The notes: generated from the letters alone by a model not told the origin. Shown: positions 14,501-25,821, numbered from the stretch's first letter. The stretch: 64,000 nucleotides of DNA from Candidatus Mycalebacterium zealandia (GCA_014075295.1 CP046180.1:791945-855944); one strand, 5' to 3'. Program-made: numbers and translations.

Positions 14501-16458
14501 ATTTTGATTGTTGGCGCAATGGGGCTGCCGTCTTTGTTTTTGAGTTCCTGCAGTTTCTGATAAATGAACGGCTTGAAAAGCTCAAGCGCCATCTGTTTGG
14601 GAAGTCCGCACTGGTGAAGTTTGAGGTTCGGTCCCACCGTAATAACGGAACGCCCTGAATAATCCACCCTTTTTCCGAGAAGGTTCTGGCGGAATCTGCC
14701 GCTTTTGCCTTTTATGATGTCGGTCAAACTTTTCAACGGACGATGGTTGTGGCCTAGAACAGGTCTTCCCCTTCTGCCGTTTTCAAACAGTGCATCCACC
14801 GCTTCCTGCAACATTCTTTTCTCATTTCTGATGATGATGTCGGGAGCGTCCAGCTCAAGCAACCGTTTCAGGCGGTTATTTCTGTTGATGACCCGTCTGT
14901 AGAGAACATTGAGGTCTGAAGTGGCGAAACGCCCTCCGTGTGGAACAAGCGGACGCAAATCCGGCGGTAGAACGGGAATTGTTTTAAGAACCATCCACTC
15001 AGGGCGGTTTTTTGACTTGCGGAAAGTTTCGCAAATTTTGCGCCTTTTCGCGATCTTTGCCTTTTTGAGCGAAGAACTTGATTCCTGCATCTCCGTTTTC
15101 AACTCCTCGGAAAGTGATTTCAAATCAATGCTTTTGAGCATATCGTAAATGGCTTCGGCGCCCATTCCGTATGTGTAGTCAACCTCAAAACTTTCATCCG
15201 CTTCGGTAAGAGTTTTAATTTCCTTTTCGGTAAAGGTCACTTTTCTTATAATTTTGGCGAAGGCGGTCTGAGATTTTTTCAACCCTTCTCTCGCTTTTAC
15301 GAGTTTTTCATGCGCGTCTTTGAGATGCGGAGGAACTTCCTCTGCATCGGCTTCCACTTTCTTTATGTTTTTCCCGGCTTCCTTATAAAGTTTGCGTAGC
15401 GCGGCGTGCTCTTTTCCGGCATCACCTTTCGTAAGGTTGTCGCAGGAAGCGCCGAGGGCTTCTTTGTCCGCTTTTCCGGTTTCAGAAAGCTGTTTGAAAG
15501 CGTCCCGAATTTTTTTATCGCTTGAGGGAAGTTCTTCAAGTCCGAGGGTTTGGTAGTGTTTCGCGAACTTTTGCTCAAATTCCTTTTTAATGGACTGAAA
15601 ACTGTCCCGCGCCTCTTTGAGTTTTCCTCCGGACTCAAGTTCGCCCGACTCGGACACTTTTGCGTCATATGCGGACTGCTCTTTCTTAAGATCCTTTTTC
15701 GCGTCCAGAAAAGAGTCTATTAAATGCCGGGCTTCCCGCTCGGAAATGCCTGTTTTTCCCGACATAACACTTTGCAGGGAAAATTTAGTGACCAGTTCCG
15801 CGGGCAGAAGGTGTTTATACCAATAGTCTTTGACCAGAGACATGTCTTCTTCGCTAATCAAAAACGCAACGGCGTGGTTTACGTCCTCTTCGGTTTCAAT
15901 ATTAAGGAAAGTGTCTTCTTCCGGACAATTCCTGAGAGAGGCAATCACATATTCCGCCCGCCGCAGTTGCGACAACTCTTCATTCGTGAGTGTCTGCCCC
16001 ATTTTGAGGGGATGAGCGCCTGGATTGATGACCACATGGGATTCATAGTAAAGAACCCTGTCAATGTCCCTGATGCTCATGTCAAGAATCATTCCTATAC
16101 GGCTCGGGGTGCTACGCAAAAACCAGATGTGAACAACGGGCGAGGCAAGGTCTATGTGAGCCATTCTTTCCCGTCTCAATTTTGAGGTCGTAACTTCAAC
16201 GCCGCATTTTTCGCAGACAATCCCTCTGTGTTTTAGCCGTTTGTATTTGCCGCAGGCACATTCGTAATCTTTTACGGGTCCGAAAATTTTGGGGCAGAAC
16301 AAACCGTTCTTTTCCGGTTTGAACGTTCTGTAATTTATGGTTTCGGGCTTCTTAACCTCCCCGTGAGACCATTCCTTGATGGCTTCAGGAGACGCTATTG
16401 ATATTTGAACCCCTGAATAGTTATCCGCTTTGGTCGATACTATGTCTTCAAATTCCAT
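11530..16458 (-). CDS. rpoC: RNA polymerase beta' subunit with large N-terminal-region insertion
   Basis: NADFDGDQM catalytic motif, Zn-finger [25 protein letters not shown]; ATG 16458 preceded by GGAGGT. Confidence 0.99.
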
Positions 16459-16471
16459 TTTTACCTCCCGG

Positions 16472-19400
16472 TTACTGTTTTGCCGCTCCAGACTGCAATT
16501 CTGCCATTTCCTCATCGCTCTCGGAAACCAAATCTATTTGAAGTCCGAGCGATTGAAGTTCTTTCCTGAGAACATTGAAAGATTCCGGAATCCCGGGATC
16601 AAGCGCCATTTTGCCTTCAACGATTGACGCGAACATCTTTGTTCTTCCAATCACATCGTCGGACTTGACCGTCAAAAACTCTTGAAGTGTGTGTGCGGCG
16701 CCGTATGCCTCAAGAGCCCAGACCTCCATCTCACCGAGCCGTTGCCCACCGAAATGCGCCTTTCCGCCGAGCGGTTGCTGCGTGACAAGTGAGTAAGGCC
16801 CTATTGAACGCGCATGAATCTTCTCCTCAACAAGGTGGTGAAGTTTGAGCATATACATAATTCCGACTGTTACTTTCTGGTCAAACGGCTCTCCCGTGCG
16901 GCCATCAAACAGGGTTGTTTTTCCATCATCTGAAAGCCCTGCGAGGCTCATAAAACTTTTTATCTCCTCTTCGGTCGCTCCGTCAAAAACCGGAGATGCG
17001 ACGGGAATACCGTCTTTGATGGCTTTGACAAAATTGTGCGTTTCGTCTTCGTTCATTTTGTCTATAAAAGAAGTGTCCTCGCCCCGGTTTCCATAAGATT
17101 CCTTGAGTTTGGCTTTAAGCGCCGCGGCTCCGTAGTGTTGCTCAATATATTCATTGAGCTGCTCTCCGATTTTCCTGCTTGCCCAGCCCAGATGCGTTTC
17201 CAGAACCTGCCCGACATTCATTCGGGACGGAACTCCCAGAGGGTTGAGCACCATATCAACCGGCGTGCCGTCCTCCATATAAGGCATATCTTCTTGAGGA
17301 AGAATCCGTGAAATCACACCCTTGTTGCCATGCCGTCCCGCCATTTTGTCTCCGACCTGAAGATTCATTTTTACAGCAACATAGACCTTGACGGTTTTGA
17401 GAACACCCGGCGCGAGGTCGTCTTTTTGTTCAAGTTTCTTTTTATTATCCTCATACTTCTCTTTGAGGTTGTCTATCTGTCTTAAAACTGCGTCTACCGC
17501 CACCTTGACTTGTTCGGAAAGAGCCTTCGGCTCAACTTTTATTTCCCTGATATCTTCAAGATCAAGAAGCGTGAGGTTGTCAGCGGTAAAAGAGTCTCCC
17601 TTGGAAATCATCTTTTCGCCTTTACTCTTAATGTCTGAAGACGCCTTCTTGCCTTTCAGCAAAGACGCCATGGTTTCAACCGCGCTCTGTTTCAAAATGC
17701 GCGATACGTATTCCATTTCGCCTTTGATTTTCTCAATGTCATCAATTTCAATATTTTTCGCCCTCGGGTCTTTTTCCGAAACCGCGCGCGAAGTCAGCAC
17801 TTTGACATCTATAACTGTGCCGGGAATGGAGGAATGACTTCTAAGGGAGGTGTCTTTGACATCTCTTGCTTTGTCTCCGAAAATGGCGCGAAGAAGTTTT
17901 TCCTCTTGCGACAGACGCATCTCGCCTTTCGGAGAGATTTTGCCCACAAGGATATCTCCCATATTGACAGTTGAGCCAACCCGGACTATGCCGCTTTCAT
18001 CAAGATTTTTGAGTGCGTCCTCTCCAATATTGGGAATGTCTTGGGTGATTTCCTCGCGCCCCAATTTGGTTTCTCTCGCCTGACATTCAAACTTTTCTAT
18101 GTGAACGGAAGTGAAAACGTTGTCTTTTACAATTCTTTCACTAATAAGTATCGCATCTTCAAAATTGTATCCGCCCCATGGCATAAACGACACCATAATG
18201 TTCTGCCCCAGCGCCAGTTCACCATTTTTGGTTGAGGGACCGTCCGCAATAACCTGCCCTTTAACCACTTTCTGACCCTTGAAAACAATAGGAGTCTGGT
18301 TCCAGCAGGTTCCCTGATTGGATTTCCTGAACTTGATCATTTTGTATATTTCCACGCCGGAATCCAAAGAGTCGGCGGATTTTGCCATCTTGCTGTTTTT
18401 CACAACAATAATCTCGGAATCCGCGTGAATAACTTCACCATCCTCTTTTGCAATAACCGCAACTCCGGAGTCTTTTGCAACTGAAGACTCAAGCCCCGTT
18501 CCCACAAGCGGCGCGACCGCCTTAATTAAAGGAGCCGCCTGCCTCTGCATGTTTGAACCCATAAGAGCCCTGTTCGCGTCATCGTGTTCAAGAAACGGTA
18601 TCAAAGAAGCGGAGATTGAGACAAGCTGGGACGGCGAAACGTCCATATGGGTAACCTTGTCTTTTTCTGCCATTTTAATGTCGCCCTCGGAGCGGCAGGA
18701 AACAAAATCTAGAACAAACCTTCCCTTGTTGTCCAGAGGAGCGTTTGCCTGCGCTATGATGATATTTTTCTCCTCTTCCTCAAGAGCGCTCATCTTTACG
18801 ATGTCATCTGTTACTTTCCCATTTTTAACAACGCGGTAGGGAGTGCGAATAAATCCGTAATCGTCAATTTCAGCGTAAGTGCTGATGCTTGATATAAGAC
18901 CGATGTTTGGTCCCTCGGGCGTTTCAACCGGACAAATCCGCCCGTAATGCGATGAGTGAATGTCCCTGACGGCAAATCCCGCTCTTTCGCGCGTAAGCCC
19001 CTTTGGACCCAGCGCACTGAGACGCCTTTTATGAGTGATTTCCGAAAGCGGGTTGGTCTGATCCATAAACTGCGACAATTGACCCGTTTTGAAAAAGTCC
19101 CTGACTATTGTGTCTACAACCTTCGGCACCACTATCTCTCTGGGCATTTTGTTTTCTATGCTCTGGTATCCAATCCTTTCTTTCACGGAGCGCGAGAACT
19201 TTTCAAGCCCGCTGTAGAAAGTGTCTTCTATCAATTCGCCCACGGTTTTAACCCCGCGGTTGCCGAGATGATCTATGTCATCCACCTGCCTGCGACCGCC
19301 TTTGAGTTCCAAAAGATATTGCAGGGTTTGGATGATGTCTTCGCGCGTAAGCCTGAGAATTTCCTCGTCAACGTTGTGTTTGAGTTTGTAGTTCAGTTTT

Positions 19401-20902
19401 TTCCTTCCAACCTGCGAAAGCCGGTATTTGGAGGGGTTGAAAAACATGTCGGAAAAGAAAACTCTTACCGCCTCCGCGCTTGGCGGATTGGTGGGGCGGA
19501 ATTTTTTGTATATCTCAACAATCGCCCCGTCGCAGAAAACCTCAATCTCGGCGCCAATTTTGGTGAACTTGTTCCGAAGCCCTTCGATTTCGTTCATGGG
19601 AAGATTTTCAAAACACACCGTATTTTCATCTTTGGTTTCACCAAGAAAACCGGACAAATTGCCGGTCAGTTTTGAAAACTCTTCCTTTCCGGCTTTGCCC
19701 TGTTTAACTTTAAGGGCAAAAGTGTTATTGATTAAGTCTCCGTAAACCCTTTTTTCTTCAATCAAAGTGTCGGCAACCGAAAAAGGAACGGAAATATCGT
19801 CCATGTAGTAGAGTGAGATTTTTTCAATTGAATTATCTCTGGCGGCTTGCAGAGTTTCTTCGGTGATTTTTTCTCCAAATCTTGCGATGACTTCACCGTC
19901 TTTTGTGAATATGTCTTCGGCGCATATCTTGTCAAACAGTTCCGATTCACTCTCCAGAGAAACGGCGTCTATTTTCAAACTTTTCAATCTTTCAATATTT
20001 CTTTGAGTGAACTTCTTGCCTTTTTTGATAATAACTTCGTCGCCTTTCTTGATGTCCTCGGAACTTTTCTGATAAATGATTGTTTCCGGATTTATTTCTT
20101 TTGAAAGGCCGCCGTCTTTTCCAAACCGGACAGTTTCCATGCCGTAAAAATGGTTAAGAATCTCTTTCTCCGTATATCCCAGTGCTTTAAGAAAAAGCGT
20201 AACAAGAAACCTTTTTCTGCGGTCAATACGGACGTTAAGAAAGTTTTTTGAGTCAAAATCAAAATCAAGCCATCTGCCGTCCTGAGGAATGATTTTCGCG
20301 ACAAATGACTCAGCTGAAAGCTGGTGCTGATCTCCGAGTTTCGGACCGTCAAAAAGCACGCCGGGGGAACGGTGTATCTGATTAACAATCACCCTTTCCG
20401 CGCCGCCTATAATGAAAGAGCCGCTCTCGGTCATTTTGGGGATTTCGCCCAGATAGACATCCTGTTCGGCAACATCCCGGATTTCGTTTCCGTCTTCCTC
20501 CCACACTATTAAGCGCAGAGTTACATAAAGCGACACCGTGTAGTCATAGTTCTTTAGCCGGCACTCCATCTCGTCAAATTTCGGCTGCCCATCATAAATC
20601 TCATGACCGTTTTTATCTTTGATGGGGTTTCCGTCTTCATCATCAACCCTTTGCCCGAGGCTGTAGTGCACAAAATCAAGAGAAGTTCTCTCCGAGTAGT
20701 TTTCTATCGGAAAAATGGCTTTAAAAACAGCATGGAGACCGTGGTCTTTTCTTTCCACCCGGTTTTCCAGATTTATATCTTCCTGTAAAAACCGCTTGTA
20801 TGACTCGGTCTGAACATTCAAAAGATTAGGAATGTCCTGAATAGGGGGTATTTTAGAAAATGTCTTTCTCAGTTTTGTTTTATCAACCGATTGTGAATTC
20901 AA
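16472..20902 (-). CDS. rpoB: RNA polymerase beta subunit
   Basis: [47 protein letters not shown]; start estimated at TTG 20902 downstream of GGAGG. Confidence 0.99.
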
Positions 20903-20996
20903 TATATCAAAGCCCTCCAAAATCCACACCCGCCCATGGCGTCGTGCGTGCACAAATTAACTAGACTCTCAGTCAAAAAGACTTTCAAGGTAACCG

Positions 20997-21386
20997 TTAG
21001 GCGAGTTCCGCAGTCGCGCCAGATTCCTCAAACTTCTTCTTAAACTCTTCAGCTTCTTCTTTCTTCAGCCCCTCTTTGATAAGTTTGGGAGCACTTTCAA
21101 CAAGATCTTTGGACTCTTTAAGTCCCAAGCCGGCAATTTCTCTGACGACTTTAATGACCTGAATCTTGTTGGATCCCACATCTTTAAGAGTGATACTGAA
21201 TTCCGTTTTCTCAGCGGCTCCGGCGTCTTCCGCCGCCGCGTCCGCCGCAGGAGCCGCAGCCACTGCAACCTGAGGAGCCGCTTTAATGTCAAACTTCTCC
21301 TCAATCTCCTTGATAAGCTCAGAAATCTCCATCATGCTGGCTTTCTCAAGGTAGGTAAGCACCTCTGCTTTTGTTAAATCAGCCAT
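20997..21386 (-). CDS. rplL: 50S ribosomal protein L7/L12
   Basis: Ala-rich hinge, [24 protein letters not shown]. Confidence 0.99.
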
Positions 21387-22158
21387 CGCTGTTTTCCTCC
21401 TTTTTGTTTTTGTCTTCAGAAGATTGTTTTTCCGGCGTGTTTTCGGCCGGAGAACTTCCTTTTTCAGATTCAGATTCTTCTTTTTTTGCCTCGGATGTTT
21501 CCGTTCCTTCGGCTTTCACTTCAGCATTTCCTCCGGAAGCGCTTTCGCCACTGTCCGCTTGCGGAGCGGCCTCTTCTGTTCTTGCATCCGCCGCTTGAGT
21601 TTCTTCAGGTTTGATTTCTGCGGTTTCCTTCGCAGGTTCTTCAGCATCTTTTTTCTGTTTCAAGGATTCAAGGGCGTAGTAAACTCCGGAACGCATGCGG
21701 TCAAGAGCGCCGACGAAGTTCGAAAGCGGAGTCGCGAGAGTGGAAGCGAATATGGATATAAGCGTCTGCCTTGAGGGCAGTTTTGCAATCTCTTCAATCT
21801 CCTCAAAGCCGCAAACTTTGCCGTCAATAAGACCGCCTTTAACAACAATCTGCTCAAACTGCTTGCGCGCCTGAGTGAAAACTTTTGCGGTCGCCGGGAA
21901 TTCTTCGCCACATATGGCAATTGCGGTCGGACCCGCAAAAAGGTCCTTGATTTTCTCAACCTCAGTGCCTTCGCATGCCTTGAGAAGAAATTTATTCTTC
22001 ACAACACGCAGTTCCGCATCCGTATCTTTCACCTGTTCTCTGACAGACTGCATACTATTGACGTTAAGCCCTCTGTATTCAATCACAAAAACTGAAACCG
22101 GATTTTTAAAAACTTCCGACAGTTCTTCTATGATTTGTTTTTTCTCTTCCCTCTGCAT
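21379..22158 (-). CDS. rplJ: 50S ribosomal protein L10 with ~85-aa acidic C-terminal extension
   Basis: [31 protein letters not shown]; position between rplA and rplL. Confidence 0.96.
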
Positions 22159-24126: not shown

Positions 24127-24199
<73 letters not shown>

Positions 24200-24212: not shown

Positions 24213-25388
24213 CTACTCAATAATTCCAGTAACGACGCCGGCGCCGACAGTTTTGCCTCCCTCCCTTATGGCGAAACGCAACTGCTCCTCCATCGCCACA
24301 GGCGCTATTAACTCAACTTCCACATTTACACTGTCACCCGGCATCACCATCTCAACACCATCGGGCAACTTCACCGAACCCGTTACATCCGTCGTCCGTA
24401 AATAAAACTGAGGCCTGTAACCCGGAAAAAACGGAGTGTGCCTTCCACCCTCCTCCTTCTTCAACACGTACACCTCGGCGGAAAACTTCTTGTGAGGCAT
24501 AATGCTGCCCACTGCCGACAACACCTGCCCTCTCTCAACAGTCTCCTTGTCCACGCCGCGCAACAACACCCCAACGTTGTCACCCGCAACCGCATCGTCC
24601 AGTATCTTGCGGAACATCTCAAGACTCGTCGCAACCGTCTTAACCGTCTCCTTGAATCCCACAATCTCCACCTCGTCACCCGCGTTTATCTTGCCCCTCT
24701 CCACTCTGCCCGTAACAACCGTGCCTCTGCCCGATATAGTGAAAACATCCTCAACAGCCATAATGAACGGCTTGTCAACCTCTCTCACGGGCTCAGGTAC
24801 ATAACTGTCCACCGCACTCATCAACTCTTTAATCTGAGCCGCAGAGTCTCCGTCCCCCTCAAGGGCCTTGAGCGCGCTTACCTTCACTATCGGTATGTCG
24901 TCCCCGGGAAACTTGTACTCATTCAGCAAATCCCGTATCTCAAGCTCAACCAAATCCAAAAGCTCAGGGTCGTCCAGCATGTCAACCTTGTTCAACGCAA
25001 CCACTATCGACGGAACCCCCACCTGACGCGCCAACAGGATGTGCTCCCGCGTCTGAGGCATAGGACCATCCGGCGCGCTTACAACCAGTATCGCACCGTC
25101 CATCTGCGCAGCCCCCGTTATCATGTTCTTCACATAGTCCGCGTGACCGGGACAGTCAACATGCGCGTAGTGCCGTGACTCCGTCTCGTACTCAACATGC
25201 GATATGTTTATCGTTATCCCCCTGTCCTTCTCCTCAGGAGACTTGTCTATGTCCCCAAACTCCACAAACTCCGCCTTGTCCAATACCTTCGTTATCGCAG
25301 CCGTAAGGGTCGTCTTGCCATGATCAACATGACCTATCGTCCCTATATTTAAATGTGGCTTGCCCCTCTCAAACTTCTCTTTAGACAT
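24213..25388 (-). CDS. tuf: Elongation factor Tu
   Basis: [30 protein letters not shown]; 391 aa. Confidence 0.99.
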
Positions 25389-25439
25389 CTCTTCTTACCT
25401 CCTCAAAATGCCTGCAAATCATAAAAGCCCAATTCCTAC

Positions 25440-25512
<73 letters not shown>

Positions 25513-25525
25513 GGGGCAGTTTCTC

Positions 25526-25599
25526 AGCGGGAGACGGGATTCGAACCCGCGACCCTCAGCTTGGAAGGCTGATGCTCTAGCCAACTGAGCTACTCCCGC
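25526..25599 (-). tRNA. tRNA-Gly(TCC)
   Basis: GCGGGAG acceptor stem, anticodon loop CTTCCAA. Confidence 0.97.
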
Positions 25600-25615
25600 A
25601 GATTGCCAAGACGCA

Positions 25616-25698
25616 TGGGGAGGGTAGGATTCGAACCCACGTAGGCTTACGCCGGCAGATTTACAGTCTGCTGCTTTTGGCCACTCAGCCACCTCCCC
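25616..25698 (-). tRNA. tRNA-Tyr(GTA)
   Basis: GGGGAGG/CCTCCCC acceptor stem, anticodon loop CTGTAAA, long variable arm. Confidence 0.97.
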
Positions 25699-25748
25699 TT
25701 TTTTCAAAACAACAGACATAGCAAAACTCCAACCGTAGGCTCTTTGAC

Positions 25749-25821
25749 AGCTGGCGAAGGGATTCGAACCCCCGACCTGCTGATTACAAATCAGCTGCTC
25801 TGCCAACTGAGCTACGCCAGC
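25749..25821 (-). tRNA. tRNA-Thr(TGT)
   Basis: GCTGGCG acceptor stem, anticodon loop TTTGTAA; completes the thrU-tyrU-glyT-thrT-tuf arrangement. Confidence 0.97.

Follow-up and report, generated by a model that had tools for sequence, protein, structure and literature searches.

The window analysed here, a 64,000-nucleotide stretch from Candidatus Mycalebacterium zealandia (GCA_014075295.1, CP046180.1:791945-855944), contains the classic gene order tRNA-Thr/Tyr/Gly/Thr, tuf, tRNA-Trp, nusG, rplK, rplA, rplJ, rplL, rpoB and rpoC. The tRNA-Thr/Tyr/Gly/Thr cluster upstream of tuf and the tRNA-Trp downstream of it (window 24127-24199 and 25440-25821, minus strand) are standard, and a 141-codon ORF at 25381-25806 was dismissed as a spurious reading across tRNA genes. 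The position of rplL (20997-21386, minus strand) directly upstream of rpoB agrees with an earlier note on this DNA. The longest rpoB ORF (16472-20953, minus strand; 1493 codons) encodes all Rpb2 Pfam domains. Its start is ambiguous, beginning at a GTG 44 nt past the rplL stop (window 20920-20997) or, in an alternative gene call, 11 codons further in. At the other end, the longest rpoC ORF overlaps rpoB by 44 nt (window 16472-16515, minus strand), and in an alternative call RpoC is 1642 residues long and begins beyond the rpoB stop. The features referred to below are as follows.

16472..20953, minus strand: rpoB (RNA polymerase beta subunit), longest ORF, 1493 codons, uninterrupted

19481..19507, minus strand: beta gate loop KKFRPTNPP, RpoB residues 483-491, equivalent to E. 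coli beta R368-P376

19538..19747, minus strand: clade-specific insertion (VYGDLIN lead-in plus predicted folded module), RpoB residues 403-472

19538..19726, minus strand: predicted folded module of the insertion, RpoB residues 410-472, the part aligned end to end with the L12 C-terminal domain

19796..19945, minus strand: SI1 (beta-i4) BBM2/BEAN repeat 2, RpoB residues 337-386

19949..20086, minus strand: SI1 (beta-i4) BBM2/BEAN repeat 1, RpoB residues 290-335

20997..21386, minus strand: rplL (ribosomal protein bL12), with Ribosomal_L12_N and Ribosomal_L12, directly upstream of rpoB

21000-21206, minus strand: C-terminal-domain coding part of rplL, candidate donor or relative of the insert

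The earlier note had placed an extra module in RpoB at 19538-19726, and the reverse strand of that interval translates exactly to the 63 residues it quoted, RpoB 410-472. The whole insertion is slightly larger, covering approximately RpoB residues 402-475 when the VYGDLIN lead-in is included. By phmmer against all solved RNA polymerases, the alignment splits at RpoB residues ~398-473 and the insert is absent from every one of these structures. The E. coli beta chain resumes at window G476 (E. coli 361) and aligns gap-free to F620 (E. coli 505). The insert stands in for E. coli beta T356-S361, a surface loop of the beta2 lobe, with a net gain of ~69 residues in window RpoB. E. coli beta-i4/SI1 comprises residues 225-343 with a connector to 345 (Opalka 2010, PMC2939025). 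A location at the end of beta SI1, as first described, was therefore near the mark, but the insert starts ~12 residues past SI1 and lies outside it, in the beta2 lobe loop ahead of the gate loop. The gate loop, a contact for the NusG/RfaH N-terminal domain, was removed in NusG/RfaH studies as beta R368-P376 (PMC5100998). Together with the E. coli alignment, these boundaries identify KKFRPTNPP, residues 483-491, as the window gate loop, and the insert ends 8 residues ahead of it. Judged by alignment, the insert loop is situated between the SI1 connector and the gate-loop-bearing helix of the beta2 lobe. Closeness of the insert to where NusG docks adds to the earlier description; how the module is oriented in three dimensions relative to the gate loop and the NusG site we can only infer.

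That the source genome is metagenome-assembled is the one point in favour of the insert being an assembly or annotation artefact, such as a chimeric contig or a frameshifted region. However, the same insert DNA, at 100% identity, occurs in NCBI assembly GCA_012263365.1 and a separately assembled sequencing-run contig, as well as in five sponge metagenome runs with up to 155x depth. Identity across separate assemblies and runs indicates that the insert is not an assembly artefact. It also resides within a single uninterrupted 1493-codon ORF and recurs in-frame in three other diverged genomes. With identical copies in independent runs and in-frame diverged copies, we rejected an artefact, the probability of which is negligible.

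Relatives were revealed solely by a GTDB scan with the conserved RpoB flank, which yielded 31 species genomes. The insert is present in three of them (the window genome, L003 and L004) and in one close variant from runs X6-X8. L003 and L004, labelled Thermodesulfobacteriota, are the two closest relatives of the window organism (85-89% identity in the RpoB flank), and the next relatives (flank 55-67%), including a Candidatus Dadabacteria genome, are without the insert. The X6-X8 variant ('organism A', three 2025 runs) has a locus that matches window 19400-19900 with ~90% nucleotide identity and no indels and supplies a fourth insert sequence, in which 13 of 74 insert residues are changed versus 2 of 38 in the flanks. 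That typical RpoB has only a few residues at this site was borne out, with ~6 in 28 of the 31 GTDB RpoBs and in the closest RpoB fragments of a 5.8-billion-protein collection, where the window has ~75. The insert is clade-restricted and carried by a few uncultured bacteria, the window organism being from marine sponges.

Searches with the insert itself returned no relatives from a word-indexed collection of 5.8 billion proteins (queried with the insert and with a three-sequence alignment), from an exhaustive HMMER search of 1.84 billion representative proteins at E <= 0.001, from a scan of GTDB genomes for peptides of the insert, or from two JGI metagenome scans. The word-indexed search gave no full-length RpoB, not even that of the window, all matches being shorter than 700 residues, and the exhaustive library consists of 50%-identity cluster representatives only; the lack of homologues there thus says less about rarity than it might seem to.

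Between species, the insert is 51-55% identical, compared with 64-73% for SI1 and 88-89% for the RpoB core. Nonsynonymous difference in the insert is 0.29-0.34 and synonymous difference is 0.72-0.84; the latter is saturated, making between-species dN/dS unusable, and raw proportions are given. Retained identity, along with nonsynonymous differences below saturated synonymous ones, indicates a maintained coding segment under relaxed constraint, a mode of evolution typical for lineage-specific RNA polymerase inserts. The insert belongs to the general class of lineage-specific, in-frame surface-loop insertions of the bacterial RNA polymerase beta subunit that are less conserved than the core. It is a genuine insertion domain of one small clade, spliced into the loop corresponding to E. 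coli beta 356-361. That loop is also occupied in other lineages. Two more distant RpoBs (P0015 and P0016) have an unrelated 22-residue LTREEKEHLAQTEPGKLPTQKE-type insert (alignment columns 384-416), and locus L010 has ~5 unrelated extra residues. Short unrelated insertions in other lineages mark the loop before the gate-loop helix as a recurrent, insertion-tolerant site.

Internal duplication of SI1 is the usual route by which beta-subunit insertions grow, and the insert neighbours two BBM2 repeats. It could accordingly be a third, diverged BBM2/BEAN repeat, a reading also favoured by a superficial resemblance ('x-h-T/P-x-x-x-h ... I-x-x-h-x-h') over its C-terminal half and by a 2024 survey in which all previously classified lineage-specific beta inserts were reported as TGD/E-bearing BEAN (BBM2) domains (PMC11515920). 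Comparison by hhalign with BBM2 repeats cut from the 31-genome alignment argues otherwise. The insert matched repeat 1 with P = 0.78 and repeat 2 with P = 0.28, whereas the positive control, repeat 1 versus repeat 2, gave 97.8% probability and P = 9e-13. Moreover, the TGD/E motif is missing from the insert and its predicted topology is unlike the BEAN 'two brackets'. A third repeat was rejected on the hhalign values and is barely credible. Like SI1/beta-i4 BBM2 insertions (PMC2939025, PMC11515920), the insert is a lineage-specific surface insertion of the beta2 lobe that evolves faster than the core. Unlike them, it is non-BBM2/BEAN by profile comparison, sits in a separate loop beside the gate loop, and was found only in the window genome, the X6-X8 variant and two further species-level genomes.

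Resemblance to the C-terminal domain of L12 was what had drawn attention to the segment. The by-eye alignment to the window's own L12, a protein that scores 98 bits against Pfam Ribosomal_L12 (PF00542), was recovered by Smith-Waterman with a score of 50 (z = 4.6-5.3), a value attained by 0.1-0.15% of 2000 shuffles. Because the insert was picked for its L12 look, P-values obtained from the window sequence are inflated, and only homologue-based tests are independent. BLASTP found no match between the insert and this L12, and phmmer of the insert against PDB sequences gave nothing. The Ribosomal_L12 match to the 63-residue segment that might have been hoped for from Pfam did not appear at E <= 10. 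A DUF3283 match to this segment (E = 0.05-0.08) covers 21 residues only and was treated as noise.

Tests with homologues were more informative. A three- or four-sequence insert profile was aligned by hhalign with 29 L12 C-terminal domains from the same loci. The alignment runs end to end over 62 columns (34-43% probability; P = 2.5e-4 to 4.4e-4) and stays in register across five of six secondary-structure elements. Its score of 24.5 lies 6.7 SD above that of 400 column shuffles (mean 10.1, SD 2.1, maximum 19.0), and the reversed alignment scores 13. Likeness to L12 is thus non-random. The insert profile found two matches among 177,635 PDB sequences, of which L7/L12 alone spans the whole domain (T. 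thermophilus; query 12-71 on chain 60-123, E = 1.3); the other, UvrC, consists of two short fragments with individual E = 13 and 380 and was set aside as noise. When the L004 insert alone was compared with 24,736 Pfam families, PF00542 was one of two matches (E = 0.092, profile positions 30-66), with 13.5 bits versus a curated cut-off of 25.9 bits, roughly half the gathering score and under the family threshold. Neither the PDB-wide search nor the Pfam scan named L12 in advance.

An insert HMM scored all 29 L12 domains positively (3.7-18.6 bits), and 12.4 bits or more was reached by 9 of 29 real L12 domains versus 1 of 5800 shuffled L12 sequences. Among 1256 real ORFs from the window and the loci, the best 8 non-self matches were without exception L12 C-terminal domains, each aligned along its whole length. 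The four-sequence insert profile scores L12 at a median of 10.3 bits and single inserts do so at 2.4-6.3 bits. Positions conserved within the insert family are therefore those shared with L12. In sequence terms, such sharpening of the profile is expected under homology, unlike a chance likeness in one sequence. In the reverse direction, an L12 HMM gives the inserts just 4.0-8.4 bits. Across 15,823 real-protein fragments, this HMM ranks the L004 and window inserts second and third among non-L12 proteins, and Lys/Glu-rich helices of L10 and of an RpoC insert score like the inserts. No similarity test reaches library-wide significance (PDB E = 1.3, Pfam E = 0.092, hhalign < 50%). Inserts show no clear preference for the L12 of their own clade, and L12s of the nearest insert-free relatives (L005-L009) score low on the insert profile. 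Comparison of the rplL C-terminal-domain coding region with the insert gave no DNA-level trace of duplication. Shared words are 7-10 nt and attributable to chance, and a detectable DNA-level rplL duplication was rejected.

AlphaFold modelled the insert alone as beta-alpha-beta-beta-alpha-beta, with a pLDDT of 79 for the trimmed segment and 61 when its flanks were included; each model was built from a single sequence, a setting that favours idealised folds. The insert would fold as a small two-layer alpha/beta module with four strands and no second helix, an edge strand being predicted where L12 has its 'GLGLKE.KD...' helix. As seen in these single-sequence models, the topology is also unlike the ClpS-like beta-alpha-alpha-beta-alpha-beta arrangement with its three-stranded sheet. 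Pairing is predicted between the first and last strands of the insert, as would be fitting for an inserted domain. The top 50 Foldseek matches in the PDB were ferredoxin-like (designed ferredoxins, Cas2, HMA and EF-G domains), all with E of at least 0.018 and with query-normalised TM-scores of 0.5-0.66. L12 and ClpS were absent from these 50. Structure prediction, to which the earlier note had looked for support, did not return the L12 fold. Thus, its description of an L12-like module holds for an inserted segment with order-dependent, homologue-shared likeness, but this likeness is sub-threshold and the predicted fold differs.

The fold results are in keeping with a rival reading, a ferredoxin-like domain of unrelated or de novo origin whose likeness to L12 would reflect chance or convergence, since each is a small alpha/beta sandwich rich in Lys and Glu with 'GA.hEh' as its final strand. 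Predicted topology is shared with generic ferredoxin-like domains (Cas2, HMA/Atx1, ACT-like, and EF-G domains III and V), and every Foldseek match is of this generic kind. Sub-threshold L12 statistics point the same way, as do the L10 and RpoC helical fragments that equal the inserts on the L12 HMM, the empty HMMER search of 1.84 billion representatives, and the selection effect of an insert chosen for its resemblance. On the other hand, Foldseek E values for these domains, obtained with a single-sequence model, start at 0.018, and no ferredoxin-like family appeared in any sequence search of the insert. L12 is the sole whole-domain match PDB-wide and recurs in the Pfam-wide scan of an independent homologue. 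In addition, its alignment is full length and largely in register, and more homologues sharpen the match rather than dilute it. A ferredoxin-like domain unrelated to L12 is possible but somewhat less likely than not. In standard fold descriptions, the L12 fold is itself a ferredoxin-like sheet in which strand 2 is replaced by a helix. The two topologies are neighbours, and the predicted fold is therefore compatible with common descent.

Likeness of the insert to the bL12 C-terminal domain extends to length class (63-70 residues), to the register of strand 1, helix A, strand 2, helix C and strand 3, and to a terminal 'GAE[IV]EV' strand; bL12 is both the best and the only whole-domain sequence match, and its gene is immediately upstream of the insert-bearing rpoB. 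Differences are equally plain. The insert scores under family thresholds, the second helix of bL12 (GLGLKEAKDLVE) is missing with a beta strand predicted in its place, and bL12 factor-binding residues are mostly not conserved. Furthermore, the insert is without the Ribosomal_L12_N dimerisation domain, which binds L10 in bL12, and without the hinge, and is a single fixed copy embedded in RpoB at residues ~402-475. When the deviating topology is weighed against the homologues, in which the signal persists and sharpens, and against two library-wide scans that returned the same family, common ancestry with the L12 C-terminal domain, by descent from it or otherwise, comes out evenly balanced. We accordingly give an even chance to a clade-specific insertion domain that is a diverged copy of this domain. 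By this route, the likeliest of the origins considered, a copy made long ago of the stretch of neighbouring rplL that encodes the C-terminal domain would have been captured in frame into rpoB and would have diverged strongly since, with a beta hairpin replacing the second L12 helix. The translation-factor-binding surface of L12 is not retained. It has been proposed that RNA polymerase and stalk proteins share insertion domains under the influence of gene neighbourhood (Alvarez-Carreno 2024, PMC11515920).

Conservation within the insert family bears on function. The family conserves a hydrophobic core and its junctions (TFA..V, K..F.K, FENL and IR..F..IGA..EVFCDG). L12 helices 4 and 5 reportedly make up the factor-binding face. 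The stretch of the insert facing these helices is its least conserved part, contains indels, and is predicted to form a loop and a strand. All three genome-derived inserts have lysines at the positions aligned to two conserved L12 lysines (K65 and K70 in E. coli numbering), but other positions aligned to the factor-binding face vary among the four inserts. The shared 'G..E.KD' motif (L12 GLGLKE.KD), cited earlier as common to both domains, is not kept in homologues. Its window counterpart reads LADTKD in X6-X8, VDIIKNEE in L003, and a longer TYPSVTKGKTKAEEK in L004. With core and junctions conserved and the factor-binding stretch variable, recruitment of translational GTPases, raised previously as speculation, is unsupported.

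A module retaining L12 function would recruit EF-Tu, EF-G, IF2, RF3 or a ClpS-type partner and so link transcription to translation. Sequence likeness to the L12 C-terminal domain and the two invariant lysines are in keeping with such a role, and the adjoining NusG site is suggestive; NusG bridges RNA polymerase and ribosome. However, the helix 4/5 counterpart is poorly conserved, 'GLGLKE.KD' is absent in L003 and L004, and a single fixed copy has neither a flexible hinge nor a multimeric stalk. Retention of L12 function is therefore very unlikely, and there is similarly slender likelihood that the insert is a true L12 paralogue from rplL that binds a translational GTPase or the ribosome from the gate loop/NusG site. 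Were the module to bind a translation component, the clade would have a hard-wired transcription-translation link. Our best inference for its role is that of a structural or protein-contact module at the periphery, close to the gate loop, the NusG site and SI1. Physical association of an L12-type protein with an RNA polymerase has a precedent in human mitochondria, where free MRPL12 reportedly binds the RNA polymerase POLRMT. Unlike the situation here, POLRMT is a single-subunit, phage-type enzyme and MRPL12 is separate and full-length, and no evolutionary link is implied.

Lineage-specific insertions are a route by which bacterial RNA polymerases diversify, and they form a well-known class. 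What is new in this insert is its predicted fold, its candidate origin and its gate-loop-side site, and our literature search found no description of an L12-like domain in bacterial RNA polymerase. Beta-subunit inserts examined in the 2024 survey were of a single domain type, BEAN/BBM2 (PMC11515920). The insert departs from that pattern in being young, clade-restricted, and 8 residues from a gate loop used by NusG-family factors. If rplL-derived, it would offer a concrete and recent case of domain transfer between adjacent genes of the stalk/RNA polymerase operon, so far only speculated for ancient events, and also a natural probe of the extra bulk tolerated at the lobe/gate-loop region. If the likeness to L12 is chance, it is just another small peripheral insert of an uncultured lineage.

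Two further features of the locus deserve mention. RpoC residues ~195-449 (window 15169-15933, minus strand) constitute a ~255-residue Lys/Glu-rich, probably helical insertion between 'YYESHVV' and 'GMGAEAI', a site we take to be that of the Thermus non-conserved domain on the clamp. These motifs stand 290-298 residues apart in the window, L003 and L004, compared with 38-50 in nearly all other genomes and 125 in L014. The beta-prime insertion is thus confined to the three genomes that have the RpoB insert. The two may have arisen together and could act together. The C-terminus of L10 (rplJ; window 21382-21648, minus strand) carries, beyond the usual end of the protein, an 89-residue acidic low-complexity tail that overlaps the rplL start. 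The corresponding tail is 58 residues in L004, with the same 'NKKEENSDG' end, and only 11 in L003; most other relatives have fewer than 25 residues, and L019 and L022 have ~90.
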